Assembly (NCBI GenBank): GCA_040880545.1
Contig: JBBDIE010000158.1
Location: 9,358 to 73,357 of the forward strand
Length of the DNA stretch: 64,000 nt
Origin: Bacteroidales bacterium
GTDB lineage: Bacteria > Bacteroidota > Bacteroidia > Bacteroidales > GCA-2748055
Direction of reading: 5' to 3'
Below are positions 10,499 through 40,030 of the stretch, in pieces. A model generated the notes under the pieces. The model saw nothing but the letters and a program-made list of their open reading frames with translations. It ran no database searches and was not told the origin of the DNA. Each line of letters begins with the position of its first letter. Within the stretch, counting starts at the first letter, position 1. Position numbers and translations under genes: made by a program.

Positions 10499-10506
10499 TA
10501 CTTTTG
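10499..10506 (+). promoter_or_regulatory. candidate -7 promoter box (TACTTTTG) for adk
   Basis: Exact TAnnTTTG match 36 nt upstream of the adk ATG, just after the hpt stop. Confidence 0.45.
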
Positions 10507-10542
10507 CATGGCTAATTTGTCACAATTCAAACCAACAATAAC

Positions 10543-11133: not shown

Positions 11134-11502
11134 GGATCACAGATACCAGCGAAATTTGAATTTTTGCATTGTTATTATTGTGTGAGCCCTTGTTTGACCT
11201 CATAATAAAGGAAGTTTACATATTTTTCCAGTAAAATATTTCGCAAGAGCTTTATCCTAACCCCAACAGCAGGGTTGAATAATACGCAAACGACGCTTCC
11301 TCAATTTTGCGATTGGTTGTTCTCTGATAACCCGGTGGTTAAAAAAGACCGTTGAATATGAATTCCTGCAAACGCTCTTGTTGTGAACCTGGTCGTATCC
11401 TTTTGAGGAAATCATCATGATTTGAGATGGGATGTGCCTTTTAGTTGAAAGAGGTCATGAATTATATAGTAATACATCCATGGAAGTTCGTATTTTTGCA
11501 CT

Positions 11503-12516: not shown

Positions 12517-12629
12517 TCAGTGGCTGGGTTTTTCGATTACTTCGTTTGAATAATTTAAGTTATTTTGACAGTTGTCTTTTGAATTGTAATAAATTATCTT
12601 ATTTAAGTTACAATTTAAATAAAAAAATA

Positions 12630-12637
12630 TAAGTTTG
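12630..12637 (+). promoter_or_regulatory. candidate -7 promoter box (TAAGTTTG)
   Basis: Exact TAnnTTTG match ~135 nt upstream of the 651-aa ORF. Confidence 0.3.
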
Positions 12638-12771
12638 TGCTCTTTTTGGTAAGATGATATTTCCTGCGAAAGCGAATGCCTTGGACCATCTACGTTTTTT
12701 TAAACTGGCAGGGATTCTGAAATTTATCAGGAGATATACCAGGCAAACAATTATGTAAACAGTTAGACAGT

Positions 12772-23491: not shown

Positions 23492-23586
23492 GGGTGCACA
23501 AAGATAAATAAAATGTATGCCATCACACCAGTGTACTCCTTGTGGTTATCTTTGTTTATATTTGGTATTCAAATAAAACTGAAACT

Positions 23587-24675
23587 ATGATAACAAGGAA
23601 TTACATACTGGTTCTGTTGATACTGATCGTGACCGCATCATGTCAGAATAACAGCAAAAAAGCAGACAGGGTTGCAGGTGAGGCAGGAAAATGGTCAGTC
23701 GAAAGGGCCAAAGCATGGGAAGAAGCGCATGGCTGGCTGCGGGGTTCAAATTTTAATCCCAGTACTGCAATTAACCAACTGGAGACCTGGCAGGCAGAAA
23801 CTTTTGATGAAATGACCATCGACAGGGAACTGGGCTGGGCATCGGGTATCGGGCTGAATTGTATGCGGGTATACCTCCACCATGTTGCATGGGATACAGA
23901 CAGGGATGGATTTAAGAACAGGATGGAGCGGTATCTTAAAATTGCCGATAGCCATGGGATCAAAACAATTTTTGTGTTTTTTGATGACTGCTGGAATCCA
24001 ACCTACCAGGCAGGGAAGCAACCCGATCCAAAAACGGGCATTCATAATTCGGGCTGGGTCCGTGACCCTGGTGACCTGCTTTATGAAGATCCGACCCTGA
24101 TAGGTCTGCTTGAGGAATATGTGAAAGATATATTGGAGACATTTTCAGATGATCATCGGATCGTACTCTGGGATCTCTACAATGAGCCTGGAAATTCTGG
24201 GTATGGTAACAAATCCATGGATCTGCTGACAAAGGTCTTTGAATGGGGGTGGGAGATCCGTCCATCGCAACCTATGTCGGTAGGTGTCTGGAAACGTGAT
24301 CTGACCGATCTGAATAAATTCCAGTTAGAGAATTCGGATATCATTACTTATCATAATTACAGCGGTCCGGAGAACCACCAGGCAGCCATCGACACACTAA
24401 AAATGTATGGCCGGCCAATGGTATGTACCGAATATATGGCACGTAAATTCAACAGTCTATTCCAGAACATCATGCCGATACTGGCAGAACAAAATATCGG
24501 GGCGATTAACTGGGGACTGGTTGCCGGCAAATCGAATACCAAATATGCATGGGGAGAACCGATACCCGATGGTTCCGATCCGGAATTATGGTTTCATGAA
24601 ATATTCAGACCCGATGGTACACCTTACAGCCAGGAGGAGGTTGATGTAATTAAACAACTTACTGAAGGTAGGTAG
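23587..24675 (+). CDS. secreted clan GH-A (GH5-like) TIM-barrel glycoside hydrolase
   Basis: The ORF track starts at GTG 23542. I prefer ATG 23587, which gives the lipoprotein signal MITRNYILVLLILIVTASC. LYNEPGN (acid/base Glu) and CTEYMAR (nucleophile Glu) contexts are present. Confidence 0.6.
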   Translation: MITRNYILVLLILIVTASCQNNSKKADRVAGEAGKWSVERAKAWEEAHGWLRGSNFNPSTAINQLETWQAETFDEMTIDRELGWASGIGLNCMRVYLHHVAWDTDRDGFKNRMERYLKIADSHGIKTIFVFFDDCWNPTYQAGKQPDPKTGIHNSGWVRDPGDLLYEDPTLIGLLEEYVKDILETFSDDHRIVLWDLYNEPGNSGYGNKSMDLLTKVFEWGWEIRPSQPMSVGVWKRDLTDLNKFQLENSDIITYHNYSGPENHQAAIDTLKMYGRPMVCTEYMARKFNSLFQNIMPILAEQNIGAINWGLVAGKSNTKYAWGEPIPDGSDPELWFHEIFRPDGTPYSQEEVDVIKQLTEGR

Positions 24676-24846
24676 TACTTACCTTTCAGGGGCCGGGTTA
24701 AAACAACCCGGTAATATTTCCATCATCATCCATATCGAAATTCTCGGCTGCCGGTTTTGCGGGAAGTACTGGCATACGCATGATATTTCCTGTAATAGGA
24801 ATTACAAAACCGGCACCTGAAGCGATCTCAATTTCCCTGACTGTAA

Positions 24847-25785
24847 TTATACCCAGATGATCTTTTTTCCCACCAACATATCTTCAACCATTTCCTTTGA
24901 ATTTTCATGGGCGATTCCAAGTAAAAAGCCGCCCCCTGAGCCATTGATTTTCAGGTAATATGTATTACTGACCTGGCCCTCGATCCAGGCATCTTCAATG
25001 GTTTCCGGGATCATCATTCTGAATTGGTTCCACTGGAAATCAGAGATTGCCCTGAAAATCAAAGCGGCATCATGACCTGTATTTCCTGTAATAGTTGCTA
25101 TAAATTTCCTGATTAGTCCAAAGTAGTCTTCGGTGATCATTTTTTGAAAGGAGATTTCCTTCATTTTATCAAGAAATATTTCAACTAGCGGGGCCGTTTT
25201 TAGAAACTGCTCCGAATCCAACAGGAAAAAACGGTATCCTCCGGGCGGCTTCAGGGGGTCACCCTTAACTTTGGTGATCTGCTTTTCCGTATTAAAATGG
25301 AGGGGTGTGTCCATCAGGCTGGTCATGGCATCCACCCCAGAACTTTTGCCATGAAAAGCCGATTCAATAGTTGCGAGATCCCTGAGTTGGTGAGGCAGCC
25401 CTGGTTTTTTACCGGGGGAAAAGAACTGATCATACACCAGGGCAGATACGGCACCGGAACTACCGATTCCGTAACCCTGCGGGATGGTTGAATCAATGAA
25501 AAATCCCTTTTTTAGCAAATATTCAACTTTTTGGAAATCAGGAGTCGCGTAAAAGCTGTTTTTTGGCAGAGAGCGTATGTGTATCAATAATTCCCTGAGA
25601 CTGGATACGGAATCTACTACTTTCCCGTTATCCTCCACTTCTTTTTCATCGCGATGAGCCAGGCGGGCGTGAAAATTTTTCAATGGTACTGTGAGCGCTT
25701 CACTTCCTGCGATTACTCCGTATTCACCTGCAAGCATAAGTTTTGCATGGTATCTCTTTTCCAGGTTCATCTGGTAGTCTGTCAT
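24847..25785 (-). CDS. GHMP kinase (mevalonate or phosphomevalonate kinase)
   Basis: 312 aa. KLMLAGEYGVIAGSEALTVP (motif I), GYGIGSSGAVSALV (motif II) and NGSGGGFLLG (motif III). Last gene of the mevalonate operon. Confidence 0.75.
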   Translation of the reverse strand: MTDYQMNLEKRYHAKLMLAGEYGVIAGSEALTVPLKNFHARLAHRDEKEVEDNGKVVDSVSSLRELLIHIRSLPKNSFYATPDFQKVEYLLKKGFFIDSTIPQGYGIGSSGAVSALVYDQFFSPGKKPGLPHQLRDLATIESAFHGKSSGVDAMTSLMDTPLHFNTEKQITKVKGDPLKPPGGYRFFLLDSEQFLKTAPLVEIFLDKMKEISFQKMITEDYFGLIRKFIATITGNTGHDAALIFRAISDFQWNQFRMMIPETIEDAWIEGQVSNTYYLKINGSGGGFLLGIAHENSKEMVEDMLVGKKIIWV

Positions 25786-25842
25786 AATGTTGCCGTGGTG
25801 TTTGTTTAGTCATTCATTGCAGCTATCCACAAATTTTTCTTT

Positions 25843-26949
25843 TCAGCGCTCAACTCTGACAGGGCCATTGCCCATTTTATCATGGATGATCTTCTCGTTG
25901 TCACAAATCTCTTTCAGTTCAGATTCGATAAAAAGCCTGGCTTTTGCTGCCGCTTTTTCCGGATAGAGTACATGCACGTTGGCACCTGCATCCAGTGTGA
26001 ATCCGATAGCTGTGCCAGTGCTGTTTCTGAATTTTCTGATCCGTTGTATAGCCTCAAGTGTATTTGGTTTTATCAGGATATATCCGGGTATTCCGGTCAT
26101 CATCATGGCATGCAATGAGAGCGCCTCATTTTCCATGACATCGATGAATTTTCTGGTATCCCCGATCTTCAGTACGTCGGCCATAAGCTGCATATTAGCT
26201 TCGGCAGCTTCGAATCGGAGTTTTGCATAGGGATTGGTTCTCATCAGTTCGTGTCCCATGGTGCTGGATACCATTTTTTGCCCAGGATCAATGATCAGTA
26301 TACTGTCGTGCATACCGGACAGGTCTTCGTGGATTTCAACTGGTATGGCGTATTCATCGGAAGAGTGAGCATAACTGGCCGTGATTCCCCATGCTGCCAT
26401 CTTACCGTACAATGAACGGGAGGCACTTCCTGATCCGAGTCTGGCTATGAATGATGCTTTCCTTAAAAAGTCATCTGTGACAGCCTCGCCATACAACAGC
26501 TCCTCAATCTCACACAATCCAAGTGCCAGTGCACTCATGGAAGATGCGCTTGAGGCTATCCCGGAGGAATGGGGAAAGGTATTTTCAGATCGGATGGAAA
26601 GTTTGCATGAATCGAGCCATGGCATGAATGGTACGATTCCTTGCAGATATTTCTCCAATTTTATGGCAAAGTCAGGTGCTTTTGAACCTTCAAATTCAAA
26701 ATTCAATACAGGGCCATTGATCGACTCGCCACTGGTGTAATCCAACTTCATAATCGTTACGGCGCTGTCCAGCGTCATGCTCAGGGAGGCATTGGCAGGT
26801 ATCTGACCGGGATATTTCCCCCAGTATTTTACAAGGGCAATATTTGAAGGGCTACTCCATGCAACGGATCCCTGTTTACGGGCCAGATTTTTTGTTGAAA
26901 TGGCCGCTGCCTCACTCAATAATTTCTCTTCATATTTTTCAATCTTCAT
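25843..26949 (-). CDS. mvaD: diphosphomevalonate decarboxylase
   Basis: 368 aa. SPSNIALVKYWGK, SSGIASSASS and GSGSASRS motifs. Confidence 0.9.
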   Translation of the reverse strand: MKIEKYEEKLLSEAAAISTKNLARKQGSVAWSSPSNIALVKYWGKYPGQIPANASLSMTLDSAVTIMKLDYTSGESINGPVLNFEFEGSKAPDFAIKLEKYLQGIVPFMPWLDSCKLSIRSENTFPHSSGIASSASSMSALALGLCEIEELLYGEAVTDDFLRKASFIARLGSGSASRSLYGKMAAWGITASYAHSSDEYAIPVEIHEDLSGMHDSILIIDPGQKMVSSTMGHELMRTNPYAKLRFEAAEANMQLMADVLKIGDTRKFIDVMENEALSLHAMMMTGIPGYILIKPNTLEAIQRIRKFRNSTGTAIGFTLDAGANVHVLYPEKAAAKARLFIESELKEICDNEKIIHDKMGNGPVRVER

Positions 26950-27863
26950 ATCGCAAGTTCACTGTAATTAAACCAGGGAGTCATCCCTTTTCCGGTTAAA
27001 TAGGAGGATAGCCTTTCCCTGTCCCATTCGGTGACCAGCAGAGCAAAATCCCCTCCCCATGCGCCAAGTGATTTCACATATCCCTCAAGGTCATTAAATT
27101 GTACGGATTTAAGGGCTGGAATGTTCAGTATTTCTGACAATTTGTTTTCGTGTTCCATGATTAATGAACCTAAATCATTAGGAGATGCGGCCTTGAGGAA
27201 TTTTCCGGTAAGCGACGAAAAGTATGCCACATCATCAGGGTTCGGTTGATAATTGTTGAGGAATGCAGCAACGCTCTTCCCGGATTCCTGTTTCTTTCCC
27301 AGATAGACCAGCCACATTTTATCCATAAAACCGGGTCTGAAATCAACCGACTGAACCACCGGCATTTCATTCAGTACCTGGTAAAGTATAGGTCCTTCAG
27401 ATGTGGCACAGGCTACATCATATCCTGATCCTCGTGAGATTCGGAAATGGAGTTGCATGGAATCAATACCTGCCCACTGTGCAAGCAAGGAGGTCAGCGT
27501 TGATGAACTCCCAAATCCGAACCGGGGATCAAATTCGAGGTTGGTGATGACATCCCCGGCATGGAGATATTTCATAAATTCCGGTTTAATTTCCACCAGG
27601 CTCCGGAGCATCCTCTTCAGGTTTTCGGATTGCTGACCACTGCTGGTTTTAATTATTCCCAGGTCATCCAGGGAGAGGATTGTTTCGAACCATATTTCTG
27701 AATTATACCGGGCAATCCAGTGAAACTGACCTACCACTTTTTTATCAATCACATGGAGGTGCTGGCCCACATTGAGAGGCACAGCAAGGGCTCTGGCTCC
27801 ATGCAGAATCATAAATTCTGAAGTAAGAAGAATTTTACCTCTTGCGTAAAATTGACGGTTCAT
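26946..27863 (-). CDS. GYDIA-family GHMP kinase (probable second mevalonate-pathway kinase)
   Basis: 305 aa. GKILLTSEFMILHGARALAVP, GFGSSSTLTSLL and GSGYDVACA (the GYDIA signature). ATGA overlap with the downstream decarboxylase gene. Confidence 0.7.
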   Translation of the reverse strand: MNRQFYARGKILLTSEFMILHGARALAVPLNVGQHLHVIDKKVVGQFHWIARYNSEIWFETILSLDDLGIIKTSSGQQSENLKRMLRSLVEIKPEFMKYLHAGDVITNLEFDPRFGFGSSSTLTSLLAQWAGIDSMQLHFRISRGSGYDVACATSEGPILYQVLNEMPVVQSVDFRPGFMDKMWLVYLGKKQESGKSVAAFLNNYQPNPDDVAYFSSLTGKFLKAASPNDLGSLIMEHENKLSEILNIPALKSVQFNDLEGYVKSLGAWGGDFALLVTEWDRERLSSYLTGKGMTPWFNYSELAI

Positions 27864-27869
27864 TATCTG

Positions 27870-29189
27870 TTATTTCGTGTCGCTGATAAATTTCCTTACA
27901 TCTGCGTAACTCACTGTTCTGTTGGAGAAATAATCCATGGCTGAATTTCTCTGCTCCTCATCGGCGCCAAGCTGACGCAGGATATTGGAAAGATGCATTT
28001 TCATATGCCCTTGCTGGATTCCGCCTGTGATCAGTGAGCGAATGGCGCTGAAGTTGCTGGCAAGTCCCGTGGATGCGATGATCATCATGAGCTCTTCAGC
28101 ACCCGGGTCCTGAAGTATCTTCAGGCTTGCTCTGGCCAGAGGATGTAAAGAGGTTAACCCTCCTACCGAGCCAACCGACATGGGTAGCTCAAGTTCAAAA
28201 CGGAAAACATTTCCTGATATTTCTGCCCGTGAAAGACTACAATAGCTGCCCTGCCTGGCCGCATACGCATGTCCGCATGCTTCTACAGCCCTGAAATCAT
28301 TACCAGTGGCAATTACAACGGCATCGATTCCGTTAAAAATTCCCTTGTTATGGGTAACCGCCCTGGAGATATCGTGATGGGCAATTTCAGTGGCGCGTAC
28401 GAACTTTTCAGCAAATGCAAGCCCCGACAGTTTAGGGTCAAAGGAATCGAATGAACGGACATCTGTCTCCACGGTTGCTTTAACACGGCTGCCTGGTGTA
28501 AAGTTGGAGAGGATCGACATCACAATCATCAATTCACCTGTCATGTTCTGATCAACTACTGCCTCTTTAACAACAGCTTGCCATTTTACTGCCAATGCTT
28601 CGAGTACCGTATTGATGAAGTTGGCTCCCATGGCATCCCCGGTGCCGAATTCTGTATGTAATTGATAATAGTCTGAAAGGGTGCCAGTAAGGTCGACCAG
28701 TGAAATATCTGAAATTCCACCACCGCGATTTTGCATTGATGCTGTTAACGGATCCAGGGAGCGGATGAGAAATGTACGCTTTTGCCGGAACAACTCCTTC
28801 AGAAAATCGGGTTGCCCGGTCCATTGGAAATGAACCTGCCCGGTTTTTATCGGTTTTTCTACCTGCGCATTGAAACCGCCATGCCCGGCCCAGAACTTGG
28901 CAGCATTTGACACGGCAGCCACCACTGAACTCTCCTCAATGGCCATGGGAACCACGAACCATTTCCCGTTGATCTTGAAATTGGGAGCCAGACCGAAAGG
29001 AAGATGAAAGGCAGAGACCGTATTTTCACTGAATTCGTTGTACAGTGACTGCAATTCTTTGTCGGGATGCAGATGAGAGGCGAGGACAGCGGCATATTCT
29101 GAGGGAAGTCCAAATTCATCCTGCACCCATTGAACCTTCTCCATGGGTGTAAACTTAGAGAAGCCTGAAATTGTCTCCTTCTGAGCCAT
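27870..29189 (-). CDS. mvaA: class II hydroxymethylglutaryl-CoA reductase
   Basis: 439 aa (class II size). GDAMGANFINT, SVGSVGGLT and GIQQGHMKMHLSN (catalytic His context). Confidence 0.9.
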   Translation of the reverse strand: MAQKETISGFSKFTPMEKVQWVQDEFGLPSEYAAVLASHLHPDKELQSLYNEFSENTVSAFHLPFGLAPNFKINGKWFVVPMAIEESSVVAAVSNAAKFWAGHGGFNAQVEKPIKTGQVHFQWTGQPDFLKELFRQKRTFLIRSLDPLTASMQNRGGGISDISLVDLTGTLSDYYQLHTEFGTGDAMGANFINTVLEALAVKWQAVVKEAVVDQNMTGELMIVMSILSNFTPGSRVKATVETDVRSFDSFDPKLSGLAFAEKFVRATEIAHHDISRAVTHNKGIFNGIDAVVIATGNDFRAVEACGHAYAARQGSYCSLSRAEISGNVFRFELELPMSVGSVGGLTSLHPLARASLKILQDPGAEELMMIIASTGLASNFSAIRSLITGGIQQGHMKMHLSNILRQLGADEEQRNSAMDYFSNRTVSYADVRKFISDTK

Positions 29190-29195
29190 AATGCT

Positions 29196-30194
29196 TTATT
29201 TAACGGTAAGATAGGCATACGCCATCTCCAGACCCTTTACCTGCCCTTCAACAAATTTATGAAGATGATCATAATCTTCACGTGCATGTTCCAAAAAAGT
29301 TGAAGCCATTCCATAAATTGCCGGTAATTCAGACTTTTGAAGCAGGTAATATCCATCCAGGAAATTTTTGATCCCCCCCGAAATGACCAGCGCATTGCAA
29401 GCTGGTTTTTCTACAGCAATTATGGCATTGATTGATTGAACCATGGAGAGGGCATCCTCCCCGATATATGACAGGGGTTCCAGTAGGGATGTATTGGAGT
29501 TTTCATTCCTGAGCAACTCCAGTCTTGCAAAATTTGTTCCGCCGAATGCAGCCAGTTCGATGGCGCTGACCGGTAATTGTAACAACGCCTTCAGGCTGGC
29601 GGGCCCCATTCCCTGCCCCACCTCTTTAACGATCACCGGAAATTTGAACCTATCCAGCAATTTCGAAATAGTATCAATGGGGGGATACTCCAGGATATCA
29701 CCTTCTGACTGAAACCACTCCTGCATGGGGTTCACATGAATGATAAGTCCATCGGCATCGAGCCTTTCAATCAGCCTTTCTGCCAGCGATACTTTTTTCT
29801 CCACCACCAGTTCTTCCACCTGTGCAATACCGAGATTTGCCCATAGCGGTCTGTCGGGGCCTATGAAAGGGCGCATATTAAAATCTTCAAAATAGCTGTT
29901 GTCATCCAGGATGATCCTGCATGAGCCGAGTCCCATACCCATTCCAAACTCTTTGCAAGCCCTGGCCAGGTTGCGGTTGATGGTACCTGCCATCTTTGTT
30001 CCCCCGGTCATGCTACTTACCCATAACGGAACATCGAAATCCCTTTCAAGAAATTTAAATGGTTTTAGTCCGTCAGTGGGGTGTGCAGATAGCAATGGTT
30101 CGTAATGAAAACGATCATCCATTTTTGCTATCCCGGTTTGGGAGCTGAATGCCAGGTCGATATGGTCTTTTTTTCTGGACTCAAGTGATTCCAT
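29196..30194 (-). CDS. fni: type 2 (FMN-dependent) isopentenyl-diphosphate delta-isomerase
   Basis: 332 aa. N-terminal RKKDHIDL, then SSMTGGT, VKEVGQGMG and FGGTNFA motifs. Confidence 0.9.
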   Translation of the reverse strand: MESLESRKKDHIDLAFSSQTGIAKMDDRFHYEPLLSAHPTDGLKPFKFLERDFDVPLWVSSMTGGTKMAGTINRNLARACKEFGMGMGLGSCRIILDDNSYFEDFNMRPFIGPDRPLWANLGIAQVEELVVEKKVSLAERLIERLDADGLIIHVNPMQEWFQSEGDILEYPPIDTISKLLDRFKFPVIVKEVGQGMGPASLKALLQLPVSAIELAAFGGTNFARLELLRNENSNTSLLEPLSYIGEDALSMVQSINAIIAVEKPACNALVISGGIKNFLDGYYLLQKSELPAIYGMASTFLEHAREDYDHLHKFVEGQVKGLEMAYAYLTVK

Positions 30195-30207
30195 AATTGT
30201 TGGGATG

Positions 30208-31359
30208 TTACCTGATACCTAAATGGCGGGAGATGATCAGACGTATAATTTCTGATGTGCCCTCACCTATTTCCAGAATACGCTGGTCTCTGTAAAATCT
30301 CTCTATGGGATTGTCTTTCATTAAGCCGTGGGCACCGTGGATCTGTAGCGATTCATTGGCCACTTCCCTGGCAATTTCAGAGGTGTATAATTTTGCCATG
30401 GCCGCCTCCTTACCAAACGGGTAGTTGTTATCTTTCAACCAGCAGGCCTTATAAAGCAGGTTTCTGGCGAGTTCAATTTTCATAGCCATATCGGCCAGTT
30501 TAAAGGAGTTGACCTGAAAACTGTGGATCGGCTTCCCGAATTGTACCCGTTTACCCGAATATTCCATGGCCATTTCAAACGCACCCTGTGCAAGACCCAA
30601 ACCCATGGCAGCAATTGAGAGCCTGCCTGCGTCGAGGGTGGCAAGCATGATTTTGGAACCCTTGCCCCGTTCACCAAGGATATACGATTCAGGAACTGTT
30701 ACATTATCGAAAAATATCCGCCCGGTATCGGCACTGCGCCACATCATCTTCGAATTGATCAGTTCACAGCTGTATCCCGCTGTATCCCGGGGTACCAAAA
30801 TAACAGACAGCTCCTTTTTCCCGCTTTCACGGGTACCCGTAACAGCCTGTACAGTAACGCCACCAGCCATTTCCGAAGCGGCATTGGTAATATAGATTTT
30901 CTTTCCATTGATCACCCACTGGCCATTTTTTAGTTCGGCACTGGTCTCCGTATTGTTGGAATCTGAGCCTGCATTAGGTTCTGTCAGCCCAAATGCCCAT
31001 AATTTTTTCCCTGTTGTAAGCATGGGCAGGAACTGTTTTTTCTGCTCCTCGGTGCCATATGCCATAATGGGCGCCTGCCCCAGTGAATTATGGGCAGCCA
31101 CGGTTGCAGCCTGCGAACCGTCTATCCGGGCGATCTCTTCAACCGCCAGAATGTACGACATGGTATCCATCCCCATACCTCCATATTCTTGAGGTGTTAT
31201 AATACGAAGGTATCCCTCATCGAACATCTTCTCCGTGATTTCCGTGGAGAAGGCCGATCGATCGTCGAGATCGCTGGCTACAGGCTTGATCTCCTTTTCT
31301 GCAAAGGCTCTTACCTGCTCTCTGAATTCTTCATGCTTTTTTGTTAACAGAGGATCCAT
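30208..31359 (-). CDS. acyl-CoA dehydrogenase (isovaleryl-CoA dehydrogenase by context)
   Basis: 383 aa with ACAD fold throughout. The C-terminal motif is EIGEGTSEI. It sits between the carboxylase genes and the mevalonate genes. Confidence 0.75.
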   Translation of the reverse strand: MDPLLTKKHEEFREQVRAFAEKEIKPVASDLDDRSAFSTEITEKMFDEGYLRIITPQEYGGMGMDTMSYILAVEEIARIDGSQAATVAAHNSLGQAPIMAYGTEEQKKQFLPMLTTGKKLWAFGLTEPNAGSDSNNTETSAELKNGQWVINGKKIYITNAASEMAGGVTVQAVTGTRESGKKELSVILVPRDTAGYSCELINSKMMWRSADTGRIFFDNVTVPESYILGERGKGSKIMLATLDAGRLSIAAMGLGLAQGAFEMAMEYSGKRVQFGKPIHSFQVNSFKLADMAMKIELARNLLYKACWLKDNNYPFGKEAAMAKLYTSEIAREVANESLQIHGAHGLMKDNPIERFYRDQRILEIGEGTSEIIRLIISRHLGIR

Positions 31360-31365
31360 TAAATT

Positions 31366-33360
31366 CTATTTTAAAATAATTAATAATTTGTTTAACTCAA
31401 CCAACTCCCCGACACTTACTTTAATTTTGTCTATCTCAGCATCTTTGGGAGATGCAATCCTGTTTTCCATTTTCATGGATTCAATAATAAGGAGTGTATC
31501 CCCAAAACTAACTGGGTCAGCCTCCTGTACTGCAATTTTTACAACCTTTCCGTTTAGTGGGGCGTTGATTTCGTTGGAGCCTGCTTTTGCATGGGTTTTC
31601 ACAGAATTCTCCAAATACCGGTCATCAGGTATGTCCAATCTCTTTGCAAAGAAAGTAAAATGTTCAATATCAATTACAATTTCGGGACCATCAAGATCTG
31701 CCCAGCAATCATATTGTTGTCCATTAATCTGCAATTTGTAACAAGAATCTTTATAATCCAATATTTCAACGGAAATCATTTTACCCTCGGCCTGGAGTTT
31801 GATCATTTTCGCGGATTTGATTATTCTGAAGGGAATCCGGTAGGTTTTATCATTAAATTGTATCTGAATATCAGACATTTGCCTCCATTGGCCAATTTCG
31901 TTCCAGATAGATGAGGCCAACCTGTTTTTGTACCTGTGATTCAGTGCAGCCACGGCCATGATGGATAGTGTCAAGGCCAGGGAAGGCCTGTTTTTAGCGT
32001 TTTCCATTCGCTGAATAATGGAAGGCAGGTGCTGATCAATATATTTTGTACTAATACTATTATCTTCAAAATCTTCCGATTGAAGAAGGGTCACCAGGAA
32101 ATCCCTGTTTGTGGTAATCCCCGACAGATGATAATTTTTAATTCCCAGGATCAACTTCCTGATGGCCTCGTTCCTGTCTGTTCCATGTGAAATCAGTTTA
32201 GCAACCAGTGGGTCATACAAAGGCGAAACAGTATTTCCCTGAACATAACCTTCGTCGATCCTGACGTGCGTCCCGACGGATGTTTTATTCCTGATGGTTC
32301 CACTGGCCGGCATGAACTCTTTTCTCGGATCTTCGGCATACACCCTTGCCTCCATTGCATGACCGTTTATCCGAATATCATTCTGGCGAACGGAGAGTAT
32401 GGCACCCCCTGCAATTTGTAGTTGTTCCTTCACGATGTCCAGGCCTGTGATCAATTCCGTAACCGGATTTTCAACCTGTATCCGGGTGTTCATCTCCATA
32501 AAATAGAATGCCTCGTTTTCGTCCACAAGGAATTCAATGGTACCTGCATTTGTGTAGCCAATCTCACTGGCCAGTTTCAGTGCACTTTCGAATATTTTTT
32601 TCCTGGTATTCAATGACAGGGAAGTGGCAGGGGCTTCTTCAATGATCTTCTGATGCCTTCGCTGCAGGGTGCATTCACGATCGAAGAGATGGACCATGTT
32701 GCCATGGTGGTCGCCAAGCATTTGAACCTCAATATGTCTTGCCTTCTGAATGTAACGCTCCACGTACAGTTCACCGGATCCAAAGTAATTCAATGATTCC
32801 CTGGTGGCATCCAATAAAGCTTCAGCAAGTTCTGCGCTGGATCCAACGATTTTCATCCCTTTTCCTCCGCCTCCGGCAGCGGGTTTAATCAATAAAGGAT
32901 AGGGCAGTTCATTGGCCATTCCTGTCAACTCCTGCACCGTTCCTTTTCTTCCCTCCAAAACCGGGATGCCAATTTTTTTTGTCATTTCACGGGCATTAGC
33001 CTTGTTGCCCATGAGGTCAATGACTTCCGGTGACGGACCGATAAATACAAGATCATTCTTCCTGCAAAGACGGGCAAAGTCGCCATTTTCAGCAAGGAAA
33101 CCATAACCGGGATGAATGGCAGAAGCATTGCTTTTTCGAGCAATATCAATGATAAGTTGTTGGTTCAGGAATGTATCCTGAATTGCCCCGTTGCCCAATG
33201 GCCATGCTTCATCAGCAAGTTGTACGTAAGGCATATCTTTATCGGATCCAGGGTATATTGCCACTGACTGCAATCCCGATTGCCTGATAGCGCTGATCAC
33301 CCTGACAGCTATTTCGCCGCGATTGGCCACAAGTATTTTATGGAGACCGGGTTTATTCAT
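31366..33360 (-). CDS. mccA: methylcrotonoyl-CoA carboxylase alpha subunit (biotin carboxylase + BCCP)
   Basis: ATP-grasp biotin carboxylase (KILVANRGEIAVRV) with a C-terminal biotinyl domain (IESMKMEN). I prefer ATG 33360 (MNKPGLHKILVANRGE) over the ORF-track start at 33396. This gives an 8-nt ATGAATAA overlap with the hydratase stop. Confidence 0.8.
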   Translation of the reverse strand: MNKPGLHKILVANRGEIAVRVISAIRQSGLQSVAIYPGSDKDMPYVQLADEAWPLGNGAIQDTFLNQQLIIDIARKSNASAIHPGYGFLAENGDFARLCRKNDLVFIGPSPEVIDLMGNKANAREMTKKIGIPVLEGRKGTVQELTGMANELPYPLLIKPAAGGGGKGMKIVGSSAELAEALLDATRESLNYFGSGELYVERYIQKARHIEVQMLGDHHGNMVHLFDRECTLQRRHQKIIEEAPATSLSLNTRKKIFESALKLASEIGYTNAGTIEFLVDENEAFYFMEMNTRIQVENPVTELITGLDIVKEQLQIAGGAILSVRQNDIRINGHAMEARVYAEDPRKEFMPASGTIRNKTSVGTHVRIDEGYVQGNTVSPLYDPLVAKLISHGTDRNEAIRKLILGIKNYHLSGITTNRDFLVTLLQSEDFEDNSISTKYIDQHLPSIIQRMENAKNRPSLALTLSIMAVAALNHRYKNRLASSIWNEIGQWRQMSDIQIQFNDKTYRIPFRIIKSAKMIKLQAEGKMISVEILDYKDSCYKLQINGQQYDCWADLDGPEIVIDIEHFTFFAKRLDIPDDRYLENSVKTHAKAGSNEINAPLNGKVVKIAVQEADPVSFGDTLLIIESMKMENRIASPKDAEIDKIKVSVGELVELNKLLIILK

Positions 33361-34144
33361 CTCTCCATCGGGGTTCTCGTTTCTCAAAAAAGGCATTGAT
33401 TCCTTCCCGACCCTCTTCAGATAACCTGTATTTTGTCAGAAGTTCTGCGGAATAATCGATCAGTTTGTCGGGATCCATGAGAAGGTTACCATAGCGAAAC
33501 ATCTGTTTGATGCCAGTCATTGCTTTTGGACCATTCCTGAGCAATGAATCCAGCAGTTCAGGAATGAATGTATCTAATTCCTGTTCAGGAACCAGTCTGT
33601 CGGCCAACCCTCGTGAATAAGCTTCACTTGCCGGGACTGACCGGCCGGTGAGCATCCATTCCCTGGCAGTGCTCTCGCCAGTTCTGTGTACGATATATGG
33701 TGCAATTGTAGCAGGAATCAGTCCTAATTTTACTTCAGAAAAAGTGAATAATGTCTGGAATGATGCAACGGCAATATCGCAGCCTGCAATGATCCCATTG
33801 GCACCACCTATTACTTTACCCCTTCCAACGGCAATTGTAGTTTTGGAGGAATTATAAATGTTGTTGAATAGCATGGCCAGTTCCCTGCTTTCCGCTAACA
33901 GTTCTTTTTCGTTACCGGCCATTCCGCTTTTCATCCAATTCAGGTCCGCCCCTGATGAAAAATGTTCTCCCTTTGATTGGAATATAATGATCCGGATATC
34001 TTTATTTTGGTTAAAATGATGAATCATTTCAGATATTTCACGGACCATTTCAATATGCAGTGCATTGTGAAATTCGGGCCTGTTCAGAATAATCTGACCA
34101 ATGCCACCTTTGACTGATTCAAGGATAAATTTATTCTTCGACAT
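33353..34144 (-). CDS. enoyl-CoA hydratase family (methylglutaconyl-CoA hydratase by context)
   Basis: Crotonase fold (FSSGADLNW, GGANGIIAGCD). The ORF track starts at GTG 34150. ATG 34144 lies 2 nt after the upstream stop. Confidence 0.75.
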   Translation of the reverse strand: MSKNKFILESVKGGIGQIILNRPEFHNALHIEMVREISEMIHHFNQNKDIRIIIFQSKGEHFSSGADLNWMKSGMAGNEKELLAESRELAMLFNNIYNSSKTTIAVGRGKVIGGANGIIAGCDIAVASFQTLFTFSEVKLGLIPATIAPYIVHRTGESTAREWMLTGRSVPASEAYSRGLADRLVPEQELDTFIPELLDSLLRNGPKAMTGIKQMFRYGNLLMDPDKLIDYSAELLTKYRLSEEGREGINAFFEKREPRWRDE

Positions 34145-34146
34145 AA

Positions 34147-35754
34147 TCACATTCTGAATACTCCGTATTTGGGATTCTGAAATTTTTTATTCAACGATAT
34201 GGAAATGGACATTCCCAAAATTTTCCTGGTCTCTGCCGGCTCTATGATTCCGTCATCCCACAACCTTGAACTGCTGTAATATGCAGCGCCTTCCCGCTCA
34301 TATTTTTCAATAATCGGTCTGCGAATCTCCTCCTTTTGTTCATCACTTATTTTTTCACCATTGGCCGTCAGCTGATCTTCCCTGATGGTTGCCAGTACAT
34401 CCGCAGCCTGTTCACCTCCCATTACTGAAATTTTTGCATTGGGCCACATGAAGAGCAGGTTGGGATCGTATGCCCTGCCTGACATGGCATAATTTCCTGC
34501 CCCAAAAGATCCTCCAATGATGATGGTAAACCGGGGAACCCGAGTGTTGGCCACTGCATGGACCATTTTCGCACCGTCTTTAGCAATACCACCATGTTCA
34601 TAATCTTTTCCTACCATAAAACCGGAAATGTTCTGCAGGAAAATAATAGGAAGTTTCCTGTAATCGCATAACTGGATGAAATGAGTCCCTTTCAGTGCTG
34701 CTTCGGAGAAGAGGATACCATTGTTGGCGATAATACCCACAGGATATCCCATGAGATGGGCAAAGCCGGTCACCAGGGTGGTCCCGTAATTTTTTTTGAA
34801 TTCAGAAAATTCACTGCCATCTGTCAGACGGGCGATAATTTCCCGCACGTCATAGGATTCACGGTTTGTAACAGGGAGTATACCAGTGATCTCGTCAGCA
34901 TTGTACAGTGGTTCTCTGACTTCAATGCGGTCCGCCGGCTCTCTTTCTGACGGCTGGATGGTTTCAAAAATATTGCGGCAGATCCGTAAAGCATCCCGGT
35001 CATCTTCAGCAAGGTGATCAGCAACACCTGAAATGGAAGTGTGTACATACCCCCCTCCCAGTTCCTCAGCGGTTACCACCTCTCCGGTAGCTGCCTTTAC
35101 GAGCGGTGGACCCCCCAGAAATATGGTTCCCTGGTTCTTTACAATAATTGTTTCATCGCTCATTGCAGGGACGTATGCTCCTCCGGCTGTACATGATCCC
35201 ATTACTGCAGCTACCTGTGGAATGCCTTCAGCGGAAAGTCGTGCCTGGTTGTAGAATATACGTCCAAAATCATCTTTATCAGGAAATACATCAGCCTGAT
35301 TGGGCAGGAATACACCACCCGAATCAACCAGGTAAACTAATGGCAAGTGATTTTTCAGAGCGATTTCCTGGGCACGTAAATGTTTTTTAATGGTTTCCTC
35401 AATATAGGTACCCCCTTTAACGGTAGCATCGTTGGCAATGATAACGGTCTCCTTACCATGTATGATCCCGATGCCCGTGACGATTCCAGCCGATGGGAAC
35501 TCATTGTTATATTGATCATAAGCTGCCAGGGCAGAAAGCTCCAGAAACGGAGTATTTGCGTCCAGTAACAGGTTGATCCTGTCGCGAACCAATAATTTAC
35601 CTCGTGATATATGTTTATCCCTGGAAATTTCTGGTCCGCCGGCAGATACATCTGCTAACACAGAACGATAGTCGCTGAGAAGTGCATCGTGAAATCGTTT
35701 TCTTTTCTCAAAACCAGTTCCGTTTGTTTCTATTTTAGTTTTCAGAGGATTCAA
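34147..35754 (-). CDS. mccB: methylcrotonoyl-CoA carboxylase beta subunit (carboxyltransferase)
   Basis: 535 aa. [10 protein letters not shown] and [14 protein letters not shown] carboxyltransferase motifs. TTG start, with no in-frame ATG near the N-terminus. Confidence 0.8.
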
Positions 35755-35838
35755 TAAAATTATTATTTAGATATTCCAATAACACCTTCATTCAACTTTT
35801 GTTTAAAAGATATGATTAAAAGTTTAAACAAAGTCAAA

Positions 35839-35846
35839 CAAAGTTA
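35839..35846 (-). promoter_or_regulatory. candidate -7 promoter box (TAACTTTG) for the nine-gene liu/mevalonate operon
   Basis: Exact TAnnTTTG match on the minus strand ~85 nt upstream of the first start codon. This is the only intergenic gap over 60 nt across the operon. Confidence 0.4.
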
Positions 35847-35904
35847 ATAAATGTTCAGTTGAAATCGGGCATCTGGGAAATCTATAAATTTTATGTAGCA
35901 ACGA

Positions 35905-36675
35905 TTACTTGTCCCTGAATTCTTTGTTGGGGTCAATCTGGAGATACCTGGAGAGGAATTTTACGCCAATGTAAAAAGGTATAGTGTCAATAAATGCAGA
36001 GACCATTTTGAAGGTATAATTCGACATGATTAGAATAAAGAGTCCATGGGAAACAGTTTCACCAGGATGAATATGTATGGCGTCTGAAAATGAATAGGTT
36101 ATCAGAATTACGGCAACAGAGTCAACCATCTGACTGGTAAGGGTTGATCCGTTGTTTCTAAGCCAGAGGGCTTTTCCCTTTGTGAGTTTTTTCAACAGGT
36201 GGAATATCTGAACATCCACAAACTGGGCAGTCAGGTAGGCAATCATTGATGCGATAGTTGCCATTTTGGTCAGGCTTCTGATATGAAAAAAACTGTAGTT
36301 TGGGTGAGAAACATCGGGTAGTCCGTTGGCGCCAAGTTCAGGATGGGGAGGCAGTGCCCCTCCGATCCAGAGAATGAACAAAACCCACAGATTCAGCAAA
36401 AGGCCAACCCATACCACTGTATTTGCACGGCGTCTTCCATATAATTCACTGATAAAGTCTGTACATAAAAAGGTGATTGGATAGGGAAGGACTCCAACAA
36501 AAACAATAAAAGGAATGTTCAGGTTGCCTATAGAAAATGAAAGATCAATCTGCCTTGAAAGGCCCAAAATATTGAGTACAGCAAGCGTTCCAAGGAAAAC
36601 CCCTGAAAGTATGATGAATACCAGTTCACGCCTCCGGGCGATTTTATTATCTACGCCATCTGTTGGTCCAAACAT
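35905..36675 (-). CDS. yhhQ: queuosine-precursor transporter (YhhQ/VUT family)
   Basis: 256 aa multi-TM. PYPITFLCTDFISELYGRRRAN is characteristic of the family. Confidence 0.8.
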   Translation of the reverse strand: MFGPTDGVDNKIARRRELVFIILSGVFLGTLAVLNILGLSRQIDLSFSIGNLNIPFIVFVGVLPYPITFLCTDFISELYGRRRANTVVWVGLLLNLWVLFILWIGGALPPHPELGANGLPDVSHPNYSFFHIRSLTKMATIASMIAYLTAQFVDVQIFHLLKKLTKGKALWLRNNGSTLTSQMVDSVAVILITYSFSDAIHIHPGETVSHGLFILIMSNYTFKMVSAFIDTIPFYIGVKFLSRYLQIDPNKEFRDK

Positions 36676-39900: not shown

Positions 39901-40030
39901 CAGGTTATACCAGGCTGACAGAACCGTATTCAGAGAATTATTGTTTGATATGCCGGGCCTCTTGTATGCCTGCAATAGTATATTTGGTAGCACCAACACG
40001 GCTGAATTGTTAAACCCAAAAGTTTATTGA
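36926..40030 (+). CDS. 12-TM transporter-like (MFS/TLC-like) domain fused to HEAT repeats and a degenerate cNMP-binding-like C-terminus
   Basis: 1034 aa. Twelve hydrophobic helices in a 6+6 layout with a basic central loop (aa 1-440). HEAT-like repeats follow (LLRDRDLQLRATAIEAAGKLK, DIREAAIRGLY, DPVIRKTASLVLA). The C-terminal FFRTLDREVIFRLASHL...GEDRESIF resembles a cNMP-binding fold but lacks the canonical FGE/RTA residues. Confidence 0.6.
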   Translation: MPLSISKALNIEKNERSVVYLLLLQSVFLGIFAGALDVGANALFLDAYSADLMPRAFMISGAVGILFTSAYTFFQKRMQFRLFTIVNLLFVIILTGALRLGYSYTEDPRLTFALLVFMGPVVIISMLGFWGTAGRYFTLRDGKRLFGIIDTGSVVGMILAFYAVPVLVQFNFMVHDTLLIGLVSLLAAMVFQVIVLRKHQLITQAGSTRKRIKKSGFLDIFRKRYTSMMALFVVLSVITAFFIHYSFMWATEANYSDSRELTGFLGAFFGTMMIFTVIIKSTLYGWLMKNYGLRVTLLISPALLLILTIIASVVGGLFGYSAESASFTFFFLVIALSKLFNRSLKDAIESPSMKILYQSLDSDERFDVQARIDGVVNELTAFMAGLVMAGLLLLSFINVIHFSYILIFLLVIWVILGYSLYRSYRKTLNETLASAKTSTSSSPVIDISAQEKVSTTPMYGETIRLDPYFYHASTPEKLDKYLGASDPLRQYFTWQLISGTLYSCDPDYVDEVLKATKEPVLQKVIREYTERLRLPGKNIEKAFRSADKNEIIAALLQTIRDHDVSQVPHIITLLRDRDLQLRATAIEAAGKLKVKELGSYLVDYLGHPDLYSVTWSALVNMGEIILENLENAFHKTGTETFVRLRIVRAMVAIGGDKANEYLFQKISYHQRDIREAAIRGLYLNKFTPDARRIPVLQAAIYEAVLAGAGNIATEAVLRENDPGIGILDTIREEKRNTDNLLFNLLGITYEKSAIEHVQRSIEDSENEDTGFALELLNLIVDEQVYAYLEPYFDILSAGEKIRRLQSEMPVEILPYYTLLIDLLNRDSLYTGNYLRVCAIDAIRLSKGVDAGKYLAAQVFHPDPVIRKTASLVLADKDAALYENVSERLDMYSREIDHDISITGLFHGPEIIKVVEDLKQWNFFRTLDREVIFRLASHLVSSDAVSLNNPDRVSMIKAGEDRESIFSDGIVINLTDYPSVLEHMALLTSESGFRLYQADRTVFRELLFDMPGLLYACNSIFGSTNTAELLNPKVY

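Follow-up and report, generated by a model that had tools for sequence, protein, structure and literature searches.

The liuABCDE cluster of Pseudomonas takes isovaleryl-CoA to HMG-CoA by way of an acyl-CoA dehydrogenase (ACAD), MCC and a hydratase, and includes an HMG-CoA lyase (LiuE). A 'leucine shunt' into the mevalonate (MVA) pathway has been described in Halobacterium and Leishmania (PMC8791446, section 3.1.2), and its chemistry is established elsewhere through isotope labelling (PMC8791446 section 3.1.2, PMC7321100, PMC5993337); Trypanosoma brucei also encodes HMG-CoA synthase (HMGS) and a putative lyase (PMC5993337). The first-pass annotation of the DNA studied here had stated that leucine-derived HMG-CoA feeds isoprenoids in trypanosomatids, which the literature bears out and extends to Halobacterium and myxobacteria (PMC8791446, PMC5993337, PMC7321100). 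It had added that myxobacteria run the connection in reverse with different enzymes; such a reverse pathway, alternative isovaleryl-CoA biosynthesis, does exist (its intermediates are outlined in PMC5389471 and PMC7321100), but forward flow from leucine or dimethylacrylate to isoprenoids occurs as well (PMC7321100). Within the Bacteroidota, work on the MVA gene cluster includes that of Hayakawa 2017 on Flavobacterium johnsoniae (quoted in PMC6107057), some Flavobacterium species have an MVA pathway without recognisable HMGCS, left unexplained by the authors (PMC12016392), and some Bacteroidales are reported with both MEP and MVA pathways (PMC11129491).

Here we analysed a window (the whole stretch of 64 kb) from an uncultured Bacteroidales bacterium, in which nine genes probably form a single transcription unit that would lead without a break from isovaleryl-CoA to IPP/DMAPP.

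Family assignments of the nine gene products

The nine packed minus-strand genes that the first-pass annotation had placed between 24847 and 35754 were all recovered at exactly those positions, and the families it had given them were confirmed, with nuances, by profile, PDB and structure comparisons. The first gene (34147-35754) encodes a 535-aa MCC beta (carboxyltransferase) subunit (Pfam Carboxyl_trans, 504 bits). Against the PDB it scored 699 bits with the MCC beta of P. aeruginosa and 683 bits with human MCCB, with geranyl-CoA carboxylase (GCC) at 460 bits and PCC at about 250 bits; judged by these scores, it is of the MCC type. MCC alpha (31366-33396, 676 aa) combines biotin carboxylase (BC) and BCCP regions (Biotin_carb_N, CPSase_L_D2, Biotin_carb_C, Biotin_lipoyl) and retains the GGGGKG (ATP loop), EMNTR and SMKM (biotinylation) motifs; its true start may be Met13 at 33360. 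Between the two lies the gene of a crotonase-family hydratase (33353-34150, 265 aa; ECH_1, 155 bits), a placement shared by all the fused loci and by L087, a locus that contains lyase-like genes. The best NCBIfam models for this protein, PRK07468 and the gamma-carboxygeranoyl-CoA hydratase PRK05674, were both matched below cut-off, and from its LiuC position we infer a 3-methylglutaconyl-CoA hydratase.

The ACAD (30208-31359) is Bcd/SCAD-like, with 354 bits to C. difficile Bcd versus 202 bits to human IVD (1ivh), and it keeps the canonical catalytic Glu in its IGEGTSE motif, where IVD has IGAGTSE. In a manual alignment to what we take to be the corresponding IVD segment, it has a Gly at the position of the catalytic Glu254; its Gly matching IVD G374 is family-wide and present in unrelated structures too. 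A canonical IVD orthologue was rejected, the Bcd/SCAD type being closer by bits. The earlier proposal that the first four genes convert isovaleryl-CoA to HMG-CoA stands as a route, but not with an IVD orthologue at its head; gene context points to isovaleryl-CoA dehydrogenase as the role of this ACAD.

The type 2 isopentenyl-diphosphate isomerase (IDI-2; 29196-30194, 332 aa) scored 197 bits with TIGR02151, not reaching the cut-off of 281, and its PDB matches are type-2 IDIs only (e.g. 2zru, 1vcf, 1p0k). The class II HMG-CoA reductase (HMGR; 27870-29189, 439 aa) passes TIGR00532 (267 bits, cut-off 260), scores 290 bits with Pfam HMG-CoA_red and shares 100% identity with MEX0988014.1, a protein of a MAG labelled Bacteroidales bacterium. 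It is followed by a GYDIA-family GHMP kinase (26946-27863, 305 aa; NF040656, 282 bits, cut-off 225), whose AF2 model (pLDDT 91.9) matches mevalonate kinases at E 1e-13 (Foldseek) and gives a target-normalised TM-score of 0.68 (TMq 0.73) to S. pneumoniae PMK 3gon, the best among the matches listed, where 2oi2 ties at 0.68; it was assigned as phosphomevalonate kinase by elimination. The diphosphomevalonate decarboxylase (MDD)-like protein (25843-26949, 368 aa) has MVD-like_N and MDD_C domains and 150 bits with TIGR01240, short of the cut-off of 171. The last gene (24847-25785), conserved at the block end in fused loci, encodes a divergent mevalonate-kinase (MVK)-like GHMP kinase of 312 aa that looks weakly mevalonate-kinase-like (TIGR00549, 63 bits, below cut-off; PDB 2oi2, a mevalonate kinase, E 3.6e-7). 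On these assignments, each gene accounts for one step of the route, with no step missing and no gene surplus.

Junctions and flanking signals

By ORF coordinates, the MCC beta and hydratase genes overlap by 4 nt, and gaps of 6 nt and 13 nt separate MCC alpha from ACAD and ACAD from IDI-2. The gaps on either side of the HMGR gene are 6 nt each, the GYDIA kinase and MDD genes overlap by 4 nt, and the 57-nt gap between MDD and MVK is the largest in the operon. The overlap between hydratase and MCC alpha genes is 44 nt counted from the first ATG and 8 nt if MCC alpha starts at Met13; with the latter, the ORF list agrees with the range described earlier, from an 8-nt overlap to 13 nt plus the one larger gap.

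Upstream of the MCC beta gene, on the minus strand, a leader of 150 nt (35755-35904) holds TAACTTTG at 35839-35846, a candidate Bacteroidota-type -7 box found by motif scan; it is a positional candidate only, because the count of this motif across the whole window is not above chance. Two TAnnTTTG motifs were detected by motif scan on the coding strand within the operon (29252-29259 and 31503-31510), and internal promoters are therefore possible. Inverted repeats (24665-24820; arms 24665-24685, 24693-24711 and 24744-24820) where the operon meets the convergent gene at 23542-24675 are putative terminators, although no T-run was found at any of them.

Proposed route and the fate of HMG-CoA

Isovaleryl-CoA, supplied by leucine or imported isovalerate, would be oxidised by the ACAD to 3-methylcrotonyl-CoA, carboxylated by MCC alpha and beta with use of ATP and bicarbonate to 3-methylglutaconyl-CoA, and hydrated by the crotonase to HMG-CoA. 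As the unit encodes no lyase, HMG-CoA would go to the class II reductase to give mevalonate, which the two GHMP kinases, the decarboxylase and IDI-2 would turn into IPP and DMAPP. A liu-type catabolic module would thus have its lyase exit swapped for the MVA pathway, giving a 'leucine shunt' hard-wired to the synthesis of isoprenoids such as menaquinone, undecaprenol and possibly carotenoid or squalene, so that leucine carbon is apparently directed to isoprenoid lipids and not burned. The nine-gene unit contains no BCAT, BCKDH/VOR or ETF genes to specify the isovaleryl-CoA source and the electron acceptor.

The operon had been described as lacking both HMG-CoA lyase and HMGS, and the search of the surrounding DNA agrees: tblastn (with the PDB-validated S. 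aureus MvaS and the lyase-like proteins of L087 as queries), motif scans and Pfam/NCBIfam scans of the other large ORFs detected neither of them in the operon or elsewhere in the 64-kb window, and the related fused loci likewise have neither in the roughly 10 kb around them. Absence of HMGS near HMGR is normal for the phylum, since the two are more than 10 kb apart in all the Bacteroidota and Bacteriovoracaceae loci examined.

Conservation of the fused block

A survey of synteny in related Bacteroidota, proposed with the first-pass annotation, revealed that at least 14 separate loci of Bacteroidales share one gene order (the window, L002, L060, L080, L085, L086, L101, L104 and L165-L170), although the flanking genes differ. 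HMGR identity across the lineages sharing the block is 49-64%, and all seven HMGR relatives at 54-64% identity whose contexts were fetched carry it; MCC beta identity is 71-83% in close fused loci and 59-63% in L060, L080 and L086. Recurrence of the order in so many diverged loci places the arrangement far beyond chance. Some fused loci have genes for isoprenoid-consuming enzymes as neighbours: L060 has a phytoene/squalene synthase, L167 a UbiE-type methyltransferase.

Only one Bacteroidales clade carries the fusion. Among the first 84 loci, the GYDIA kinase gene directly follows HMGR in 66, often with MDD and MVK after it, whereas 75 of the first 90 HMGR loci have no MCC or ACAD genes before HMGR (in 56 of these the upstream sequence spans 7 kb or more). 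In Ancylomarina, ACAD alone accompanies the MVA genes, and MCC is missing from the neighbourhood.

The related contig L087 has the order MCC beta-hydratase-MCC alpha, followed by two HMG-CoA-lyase-like genes (HMG-CoA lyase is the best NCBIfam model for both) and an orthologous ACAD, 63% identical to that of the window, and no mevalonate genes; its MCC beta nests among the fused-locus sequences in an NJ tree. By its gene content, L087 is a natural control, i.e. a liu-type module with lyase-like genes and without MVA genes. ACAD orthologues also occur in the liu-type clusters L132 and L135, where a bona fide HMG-CoA lyase (419 bits) adjoins an ACAD of the window's subfamily. The co-conserved block together with L087 supports the linear reading from isovaleryl-CoA to IPP/DMAPP that was first proposed.

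It could instead be argued that two independent modules, leucine catabolism with a distant lyase and an MVA pathway with a distant HMGS, merely lie side by side and share an intermediate or regulation at most. The distant HMGS throughout the loci examined, the internal TAnnTTTG motifs and the Ancylomarina MVA genes without adjacent MCC would suit such a view; however, the seam between the leucine and MVA halves is short. It measures 6-13 nt in the window; by called-gene coordinates it is 9-11 nt in both L002 and L165-L167, and tblastn coordinates put it at about 10-12 nt for L085 and L086. The flanks of the block vary, but the block itself is unbroken in at least 14 lineages. Moreover, L087, in which the homologous module has a lyase, lacks the MVA genes, and the converse is also true, and MVA-linked ACADs all fall in one distinct clade of the NJ tree. 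We therefore consider side-by-side modules unlikely.

Direction of flow and substrates

Flow in the opposite direction is a further alternative, which we regard as very improbable. After dehydration of HMG-CoA supplied by a distant synthase, MCC working in reverse would decarboxylate the product with formation of ATP, and the Bcd-like ACAD would carry out the reduction to isovaleryl-CoA. Isovaleryl-CoA primes the iso-C15 fatty acids that are typical of Bacteroidota, and the operon would then bring together the two consumers of HMG-CoA. Biotin carboxylase reactions can run both ways in vitro, the enzymes nearest to the ACAD are of the clostridial Bcd and acryloyl-CoA reductase types, which are reductive in action, and the organism looks anaerobic, since the window encodes a flavodiiron protein (53532-54743). 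Iso-C15:0 is also the main fatty acid in related families, according to 10.1101/2021.01.06.425552 and PMC11129491.

Against this, the ATP-grasp BC domain has been kept in full, whereas the known systems that decarboxylate do without it; the retained domain, ATP loop and biotinyl-Lys motif would back the carboxylation direction. In the myxobacterial pathway, AibA/B are CoA-transferase-like, AibC is an MDR-type reductase and the aib operon includes mvaS, but the nine products here match the families given above only, with no CoA-transferase-like protein or MDR-type reductase among them, and a synthase is absent from the unit. Carboxylation also fits L170, where genes for a BicA-like bicarbonate transporter of the SulP type and a carbonic anhydrase (237 bits, cut-off 221) lie upstream in the same orientation and end 70 nt short of MCC beta, and the pairing of the homologous module with a lyase in L087, L132 and L135 indicates the catabolic direction. 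That the enzymes act on other acyl-CoA substrates (geranyl-CoA-type or short straight-chain), so that the product is not HMG-CoA and the mevalonate link is apparent only, is scarcely credible in spite of the SCAD/Bcd-like ACAD and a hydratase score of 193 bits with the gamma-carboxygeranoyl-CoA hydratase model, nearly equal to its best model, because the carboxyltransferase, which sets substrate choice, favours MCC (683-699 bits) over GCC (460 bits), the lyase-containing relatives are typical liu clusters, and a lasting fusion to HMGR would have no rationale.

Comparison with described systems

With the myxobacterial Aib pathway (AibA/B/C, LiuC, MvaS) the forward route from isovaleryl-CoA proposed here would share HMG-CoA, methylglutaconyl-CoA, dimethylacrylyl-CoA and isovaleryl-CoA, and in both the MVA node is tied to isovaleryl-CoA; however, the direction of the Aib pathway is opposite and its enzymes differ (a CoA-transferase-like decarboxylase, an MDR reductase), whereas the operon here has ATP-dependent MCC and no synthase. 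The Bacteroidota MVA cluster matches the second half of the block in families and order (HMGR, GYDIA kinase, MDD, divergent MVK), divergent kinases included, but the MCC and ACAD genes that precede HMGR in fused Bacteroidales loci are absent there in 75 of the first 90 loci. The first half resembles Pseudomonas liuABCDE in its MCC beta-hydratase-MCC alpha order, its ACAD and the conversion of isovaleryl-CoA to HMG-CoA. It differs in that LiuE is missing, the dehydrogenase is Bcd/SCAD-like, not a LiuA/IVD orthologue, and placed after MCC alpha, and the operon continues into five mevalonate genes.

The chemistry would be that of the leucine shunt of Leishmania/Trypanosoma, Halobacterium salinarum and myxobacteria, which leads from leucine through isovaleryl-CoA, methylcrotonyl-CoA, methylglutaconyl-CoA and HMG-CoA to mevalonate. 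That shunt is proven by labelling, whereas the present route is predicted from genes, in one operon without lyase or synthase. In Trypanosoma brucei, the leucine-shunt genes are dispersed. The chemistry is thus already known, and what is new is the operon form of the route, hard-wired.

Organization and surroundings of the operon

The first-pass annotation had proposed a nine-gene operon, and an ORF listing of the window matches it exactly, with nine consecutive minus-strand ORFs running from 34147-35754 down to 24847-25785 and encoding, in this order, MCC beta, a crotonase-family hydratase, MCC alpha, an acyl-CoA dehydrogenase (ACAD), IDI-2, a class II HMG-CoA reductase (HMGR), a GYDIA kinase, an MDD-like protein and a second GHMP kinase. 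Two junctions overlap by 4 nt, gaps measure 6, 13, 6 and 6 nt at four others and 57 nt at one more, and the hydratase and MCC alpha genes overlap by 44 nt when the first ATG is taken, or by 8 nt if Met13 is the start of MCC alpha; the genes are presumably co-transcribed. Proteins of the window are 100% identical to MEX0988013-16, from a MAG labelled 'Bacteroidales bacterium'.

The gene 3' of the operon is convergent. Upstream, a gene of the Vut_1/queuosine-precursor-transporter family (35905-36675, minus strand) adjoins the operon with a 150-nt gap, and beyond it lies a divergent gene (36926-40030, plus strand) for a protein of ~1030 residues with TLC and HEAT repeats. The transporter gene is kept upstream in five close lineages (the window and the loci L085, L165, L166 and L168, where L numbers denote loci fetched from other genomes or metagenomes), in three of these five (the window, L165 and L166) the large HEAT-repeat gene can also be recognised, and the pair is not present in L002, L060, L080 and L170. 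An Rfam scan gave no match anywhere in the window, including preQ1, and no riboswitch was found on the operon leader. The leader contains a -7-type box, TAACTTTG, at 35839-35846; two such motifs also occur inside the operon, and a scan of the window for TAnnTTTG gave an overall count at chance level. Scans for sigma-70 promoters and intrinsic terminators gave counts comparable to those of shuffled sequence (33 vs 26.7 and 14 vs 13.2, respectively), the sigma-70 consensus being unsuited to Bacteroidota, and are not informative for the operon.

Elsewhere in the window, a 1018-residue nSTAND1 NTPase with WD40 repeats is encoded ~6 kb off the operon (42082-45138, plus strand), homologues of which occur near the fused operon in L167 (1-979) and L169 (1-39). 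A 2037-residue protein (47413-53526, plus strand) has a C-terminal T9SS sorting domain as its sole recognisable domain, and a full-length DUF4914 protein (12772-14727, plus strand; 944 bits) has no known function. A flavodiiron (flavorubredoxin-like) protein encoded at 53532-54743 (minus strand) suggests an anaerobic or microaerobic host, and two genes at 15499-16452 and 59480-60211 (both plus strand) encode a lipoate-protein ligase and a member of the biotin/lipoate ligase family.

Local absence of HMG-CoA synthase and lyase

The operon had also been described as devoid of HMG-CoA synthase and lyase, which is borne out by the lack of any tblastn, Pfam or NCBIfam match to either enzyme in the window. 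The synthase query was S. aureus MvaS, validated against the PDB (872 bits, full length); in tblastn it found no match in the window or the first 167 fetched loci (E <= 0.01), nor in L168-L170 (E <= 1e-5). HMG-CoA-lyase-like proteins from L087, used as queries, matched neither the window nor any fused locus, that is, any locus with the leucine block and mevalonate (MVA) genes in one run. Among the remaining large ORFs of the window, neither Pfam nor NCBIfam models revealed a thiolase, synthase, lyase or MEP gene. The window and the first 84 loci also contained no match to the sequence motifs of HMG-CoA synthase (xACYxxT), lyase (PRDGLQ) and thiolase, a weak result since the lyase-like motif of L087 diverges ('VRDGFQ'). 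Against plasmids, the same MvaS query matched only Firmicutes, Streptomyces, proteobacterial and haloarchaeal sequences, which yielded no Bacteroidota seed for the synthase.

Some Bacteroidales have been reported with both MEP and MVA genes (PMC11129491), and for this reason the leucine route must not be assumed to be the exclusive source of HMG-CoA.

Enzymes of the leucine side

Against solved structures, MCC beta scored 699 bits with P. aeruginosa MCC beta and 683 bits with human MCCB, compared with 460 bits for geranyl-CoA carboxylase (GCC) and ~250 bits for propionyl-CoA carboxylases (PCC); by sequence the carboxyltransferase is thus clearly assignable to the MCC clade rather than to PCC, ACC or GCC. 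MCC alpha comprises three biotin-carboxylase domains, ATP-grasp included, and a biotinyl domain, with the motifs GGGGKG and EMNTR and the SMKM biotinylation motif. The best models for the crotonase are PRK07468 and gamma-carboxygeranoyl-CoA hydratase, none above its cut-off, and its gene sits between those of both MCC subunits, like in liu clusters; it is probably a 3-methylglutaconyl-CoA hydratase.

The first-pass annotation was right in calling the fourth protein an acyl-CoA dehydrogenase; its assignment as the enzyme acting on isovaleryl-CoA requires correction, since the protein resembles Bcd/SCAD enzymes most (354 bits to C. difficile Bcd) and IVD much less (202 bits to 1ivh). The canonical catalytic Glu is present, in 'EIGEGTSE' where human IVD reads 'EIGAGTSE', and judged by the residues of the IVD/LiuA type (catalytic Glu254, Gly374-Ala375) the protein is Bcd/SCAD-like instead. 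The Gly of 'IGEGT', common to IVD G374, was considered as a marker of branched-chain specificity and rejected, since the whole ACAD subfamily has it, as do the unrelated ACAD structures 1ws9 and 7szv. As a separate observation, metagenome homologues of the ACAD (L120-L122, L124-L126 and L144; 47-50% identity) are extended at the C-terminus by a rubredoxin-like segment (CPxCG ... CPxC) and form another branch than the operon ACAD; L123, the sole extension-less member there, reads 'IYEGT' and not 'IGEGT'.

Enzymes of the mevalonate side

HMGR belongs to class II (TIGR00532, 267 bits vs a cut-off of 260) and the GYDIA kinase also exceeds its NCBIfam equivalog cut-off, whereas the MDD-like protein and IDI-2 both remain under theirs; the former carries the N- and C-terminal MDD Pfam domains, and the PDB matches of the latter are type-2 IDI structures only. 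The last gene encodes a GHMP kinase that is weakly mevalonate-kinase-like. No PDB relative of the GYDIA kinase was detected at sequence level. With its confident AF2 model (pLDDT 91.9), mevalonate kinases match at E 1e-13, and the top target-normalised TM-score among the matches listed is 0.68 (tied with 2oi2; TMq 0.73), for S. pneumoniae phosphomevalonate kinase 3gon; the model has an MVK/PMK fold, and either of the two GHMP kinases may be the MVK or the PMK. It was in Flavobacterium johnsoniae that the divergent kinases of Bacteroidota came to light (Hayakawa 2017, as cited in PMC6107057). From the family identities of these five downstream genes, the conversion of HMG-CoA to IPP/DMAPP is therefore covered.

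Conservation of the fused block

Comparative evidence forms the core of the case for a leucine-to-isoprenoid operon. Species-representative genomes were scanned with an HMGR profile, and the resulting loci, with four more, were searched with the nine operon proteins, the final tally being made over all 167 loci fetched by then. Amongst 90 HMGR loci, 12 were fused (~9 distinct lineages), 75 had MVA genes only (56 of them with at least 7 kb of upstream sequence) and three had only the ACAD with MVA genes, namely two from Ancylomarina and one contig starting within the ACAD. Two Prolixibacteraceae MAGs (L060 and L080) are among the fused loci, as is a metagenome lineage (L002-L004) without IDI-2 and with unrelated flanks. 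Carriers of the fused operon include, besides the MAG that encodes MEX0988014.1, GCA_964539395.1, GCA_016936975.1, GCA_964579515.1, GCA_043797815.1 and OY782875.1. All seven individually checked HMGR relatives at 54-64% identity have the full fused block, and a metagenome scan with the ACAD profile added L085, L086, L101, L104 and the partial L088.

Synteny in related Bacteroidota, a check proposed in the first-pass annotation, bears out the unit: the order MCC beta, hydratase, MCC alpha, ACAD, (IDI-2), HMGR, GYDIA kinase, MDD, mevalonate kinase is kept in at least 14 distinct loci, while the flanking genes vary, and in most of these loci ~9-13 nt separate the leucine half from the mevalonate half. 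Conservation within the block is highest for the ACAD (76-84% identity among the closer fused relatives) and MCC beta (71-83%), compared with 54-64% for HMGR; in the distant fused loci L060, L080, L086, L101 and L104, identities are 54-64% for the ACAD and 59-63% for MCC beta.

In Ancylomarina euxinus M1P (L023) and Ancylomarina sp. (L032), the genes for ACAD, IDI-2, HMGR, GYDIA kinase, MDD and mevalonate kinase follow one another (~7700-14400), and the 7.7 kb upstream contain MutS-like and DNA polymerase III delta' genes instead of an MCC or hydratase gene; the ACAD remains linked to MVA genes there even without MCC. Recurrent HMGR neighbours in other Bacteroidota (POT transporter, DPP-IV, LpxB, SurE and others) were considered as a clue to HMG-CoA supply and set aside as lineage synteny with no bearing on it. 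In Flavobacteriaceae (for example L057, L058 and L082), a POT-family peptide transporter and a DPP-IV-type peptidase recurrently flank HMGR, which is probably lineage synteny only, though both serve peptide/amino-acid supply.

Lyase-bearing relatives as a natural control

Locus L087, judged to be from Bacteroidota by its T9SS-sorted neighbour, encodes MCC beta (65% identity), hydratase and MCC alpha, then two tandem lyase-like proteins, then an ACAD 63% identical to that of the window, and has no mevalonate genes within 10 kb. The two divergent HMG-CoA-lyase-like genes (8018-9964, plus strand; 336 and 271 residues, the first with 'VRDGFQ') lie between MCC alpha and ACAD, and their best NCBIfam model is HMG-CoA lyase at 185 and 147 bits, under the cut-off of 246. 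In L132 and L135 the order is ACAD, MCC alpha, lyase, hydratase, MCC beta; the lyase is bona fide (419 bits), and the ACAD is again of this subfamily. Since the ACAD stands beside a lyase in all three loci, it is this subfamily that provides the dehydrogenase in liu-type clusters of several lineages, and on this ground we infer an IVD-like role for the operon ACAD. In neighbour-joining trees (without support values), all MVA-linked ACADs fall into a single clade whose sister group contains L087, and the L087 MCC beta nests among the fused ones.

In the loci seen, the homologous module thus ends in a lyase or in mevalonate genes, never both. This alternation, together with the tight seam and the co-conservation of the block, makes it unlikely that the operon consists of two independent modules that happen to adjoin each other.

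Proposed route and its direction

In the proposed route, the ACAD would oxidise isovaleryl-CoA, derived from leucine or from imported isovalerate, MCC would carboxylate the product, and hydration by the crotonase-family protein would then give HMG-CoA. With no lyase in the unit, carbon would flow on through reduction of HMG-CoA by HMGR, and the two kinases, MDD and IDI-2 would take the resulting product to IPP/DMAPP.

A carboxylation direction is favoured for MCC by its conserved ATP-grasp domain. The substrate of biotin carboxylase is bicarbonate, and in L170 genes for a BicA-like SulP transporter and a beta-carbonic anhydrase (237 bits vs a cut-off of 221) overlap by 4 nt (1888-4346, plus strand) and end 70 nt before MCC beta on the same strand; the pair may serve to provide MCC with bicarbonate. 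Flow in reverse, to isovaleryl-CoA for iso-fatty acids as in myxobacteria, would suit a Bcd-like ACAD and an apparently anaerobic host; however, the ATP dependence of MCC, the missing synthase, the bicarbonate module of L170 and the linkage of relatives to a lyase render it highly improbable. That the leucine-side genes act on other substrates is scarcely credible for a carboxyltransferase of MCC type.

At the other end of the leucine-to-isoprenoid route, isoprenoid consumers neighbour two operon copies: a phytoene/squalene synthase gene lies divergently upstream of the fused operon on the Prolixibacteraceae chromosome L060 (2242-3084, minus strand), and a UbiE-type methyltransferase gene just 3' of it in L167 (14892-15659, minus strand).

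Implications

According to a 2025 study, some Flavobacterium species produce carotenoids through the MVA pathway while lacking an HMGCS gene, and the source of their HMG-CoA was left open there (PMC12016392); the operon offers a testable answer for such synthase-less Bacteroidota. We would tentatively extend this to the possibility that fused-operon Bacteroidales without HMG-CoA synthase, perhaps also without MEP, obtain menaquinone and undecaprenyl phosphate obligately from leucine or isovalerate, and that the same liu-to-HMGR logic explains the MVA pathway of the HMGCS-less Flavobacterium; if true, isoprenoid metabolism would be amino-acid-dependent there. Membrane quinones and the cell-wall lipid carrier of a sediment and gut-type Bacteroidales clade may come from amino-acid carbon, which would affect how 13C signatures in bacterial isoprenoid biomarkers are read. 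The nine genes also make up a compact cassette for terpenoid engineering from leucine or isovalerate; a review notes that E. coli had not been engineered with the shunt (PMC8791446).

Comparison with known systems

With the liu module, the operon shares an MCC-clade carboxyltransferase and an alpha subunit with biotin carboxylase and BCCP, but it lacks a clustered HMG-CoA lyase, which L087, L132 and L135 have, and a dehydrogenase of IVD/LiuA type. HMGR, MDD and an IPP isomerase are common to it and the classical (MVK-PMK-MDD) mevalonate pathway, whose two kinase steps its GHMP kinases may cover and from which it differs in that no HMG-CoA synthase or thiolase was found in the operon or the window. 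The myxobacterial Aib pathway uses a CoA-transferase-like decarboxylase (AibA/B) and a reductase (AibC), whereas no AibA/B, AibC or MvaS was detected among the nine operon proteins by Pfam, NCBIfam or MvaS tblastn. The earlier statement that myxobacteria run the connection in reverse is incomplete, as the forward route occurs there too: dimethylacrylate, not acetate, labelled a sesquiterpene (PMC7321100).

Labelling has confirmed the leucine shunt in Halobacterium salinarum and Leishmania (PMC8791446, section 3.1.2), and it was dissected genetically in Trypanosoma brucei (PMC5993337); so far it has been a labelling phenomenon of a few protists, one archaeon and myxobacteria. Full-text literature searches found no published description of a fused liu-MVA operon or of a dedicated gene unit for the shunt, and HMGR in place of the lyase exit would be its first genetic hard-wiring. 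The leucine-to-isoprenoid interpretation of the first-pass annotation is, with the corrections made here, supported at the genomic level. The predicted chemistry is that of the shunt, which labelling has established in the precedents, and the genes point to a biochemical route already on record that is here encoded, within one Bacteroidales clade, by a conserved operon of its own.
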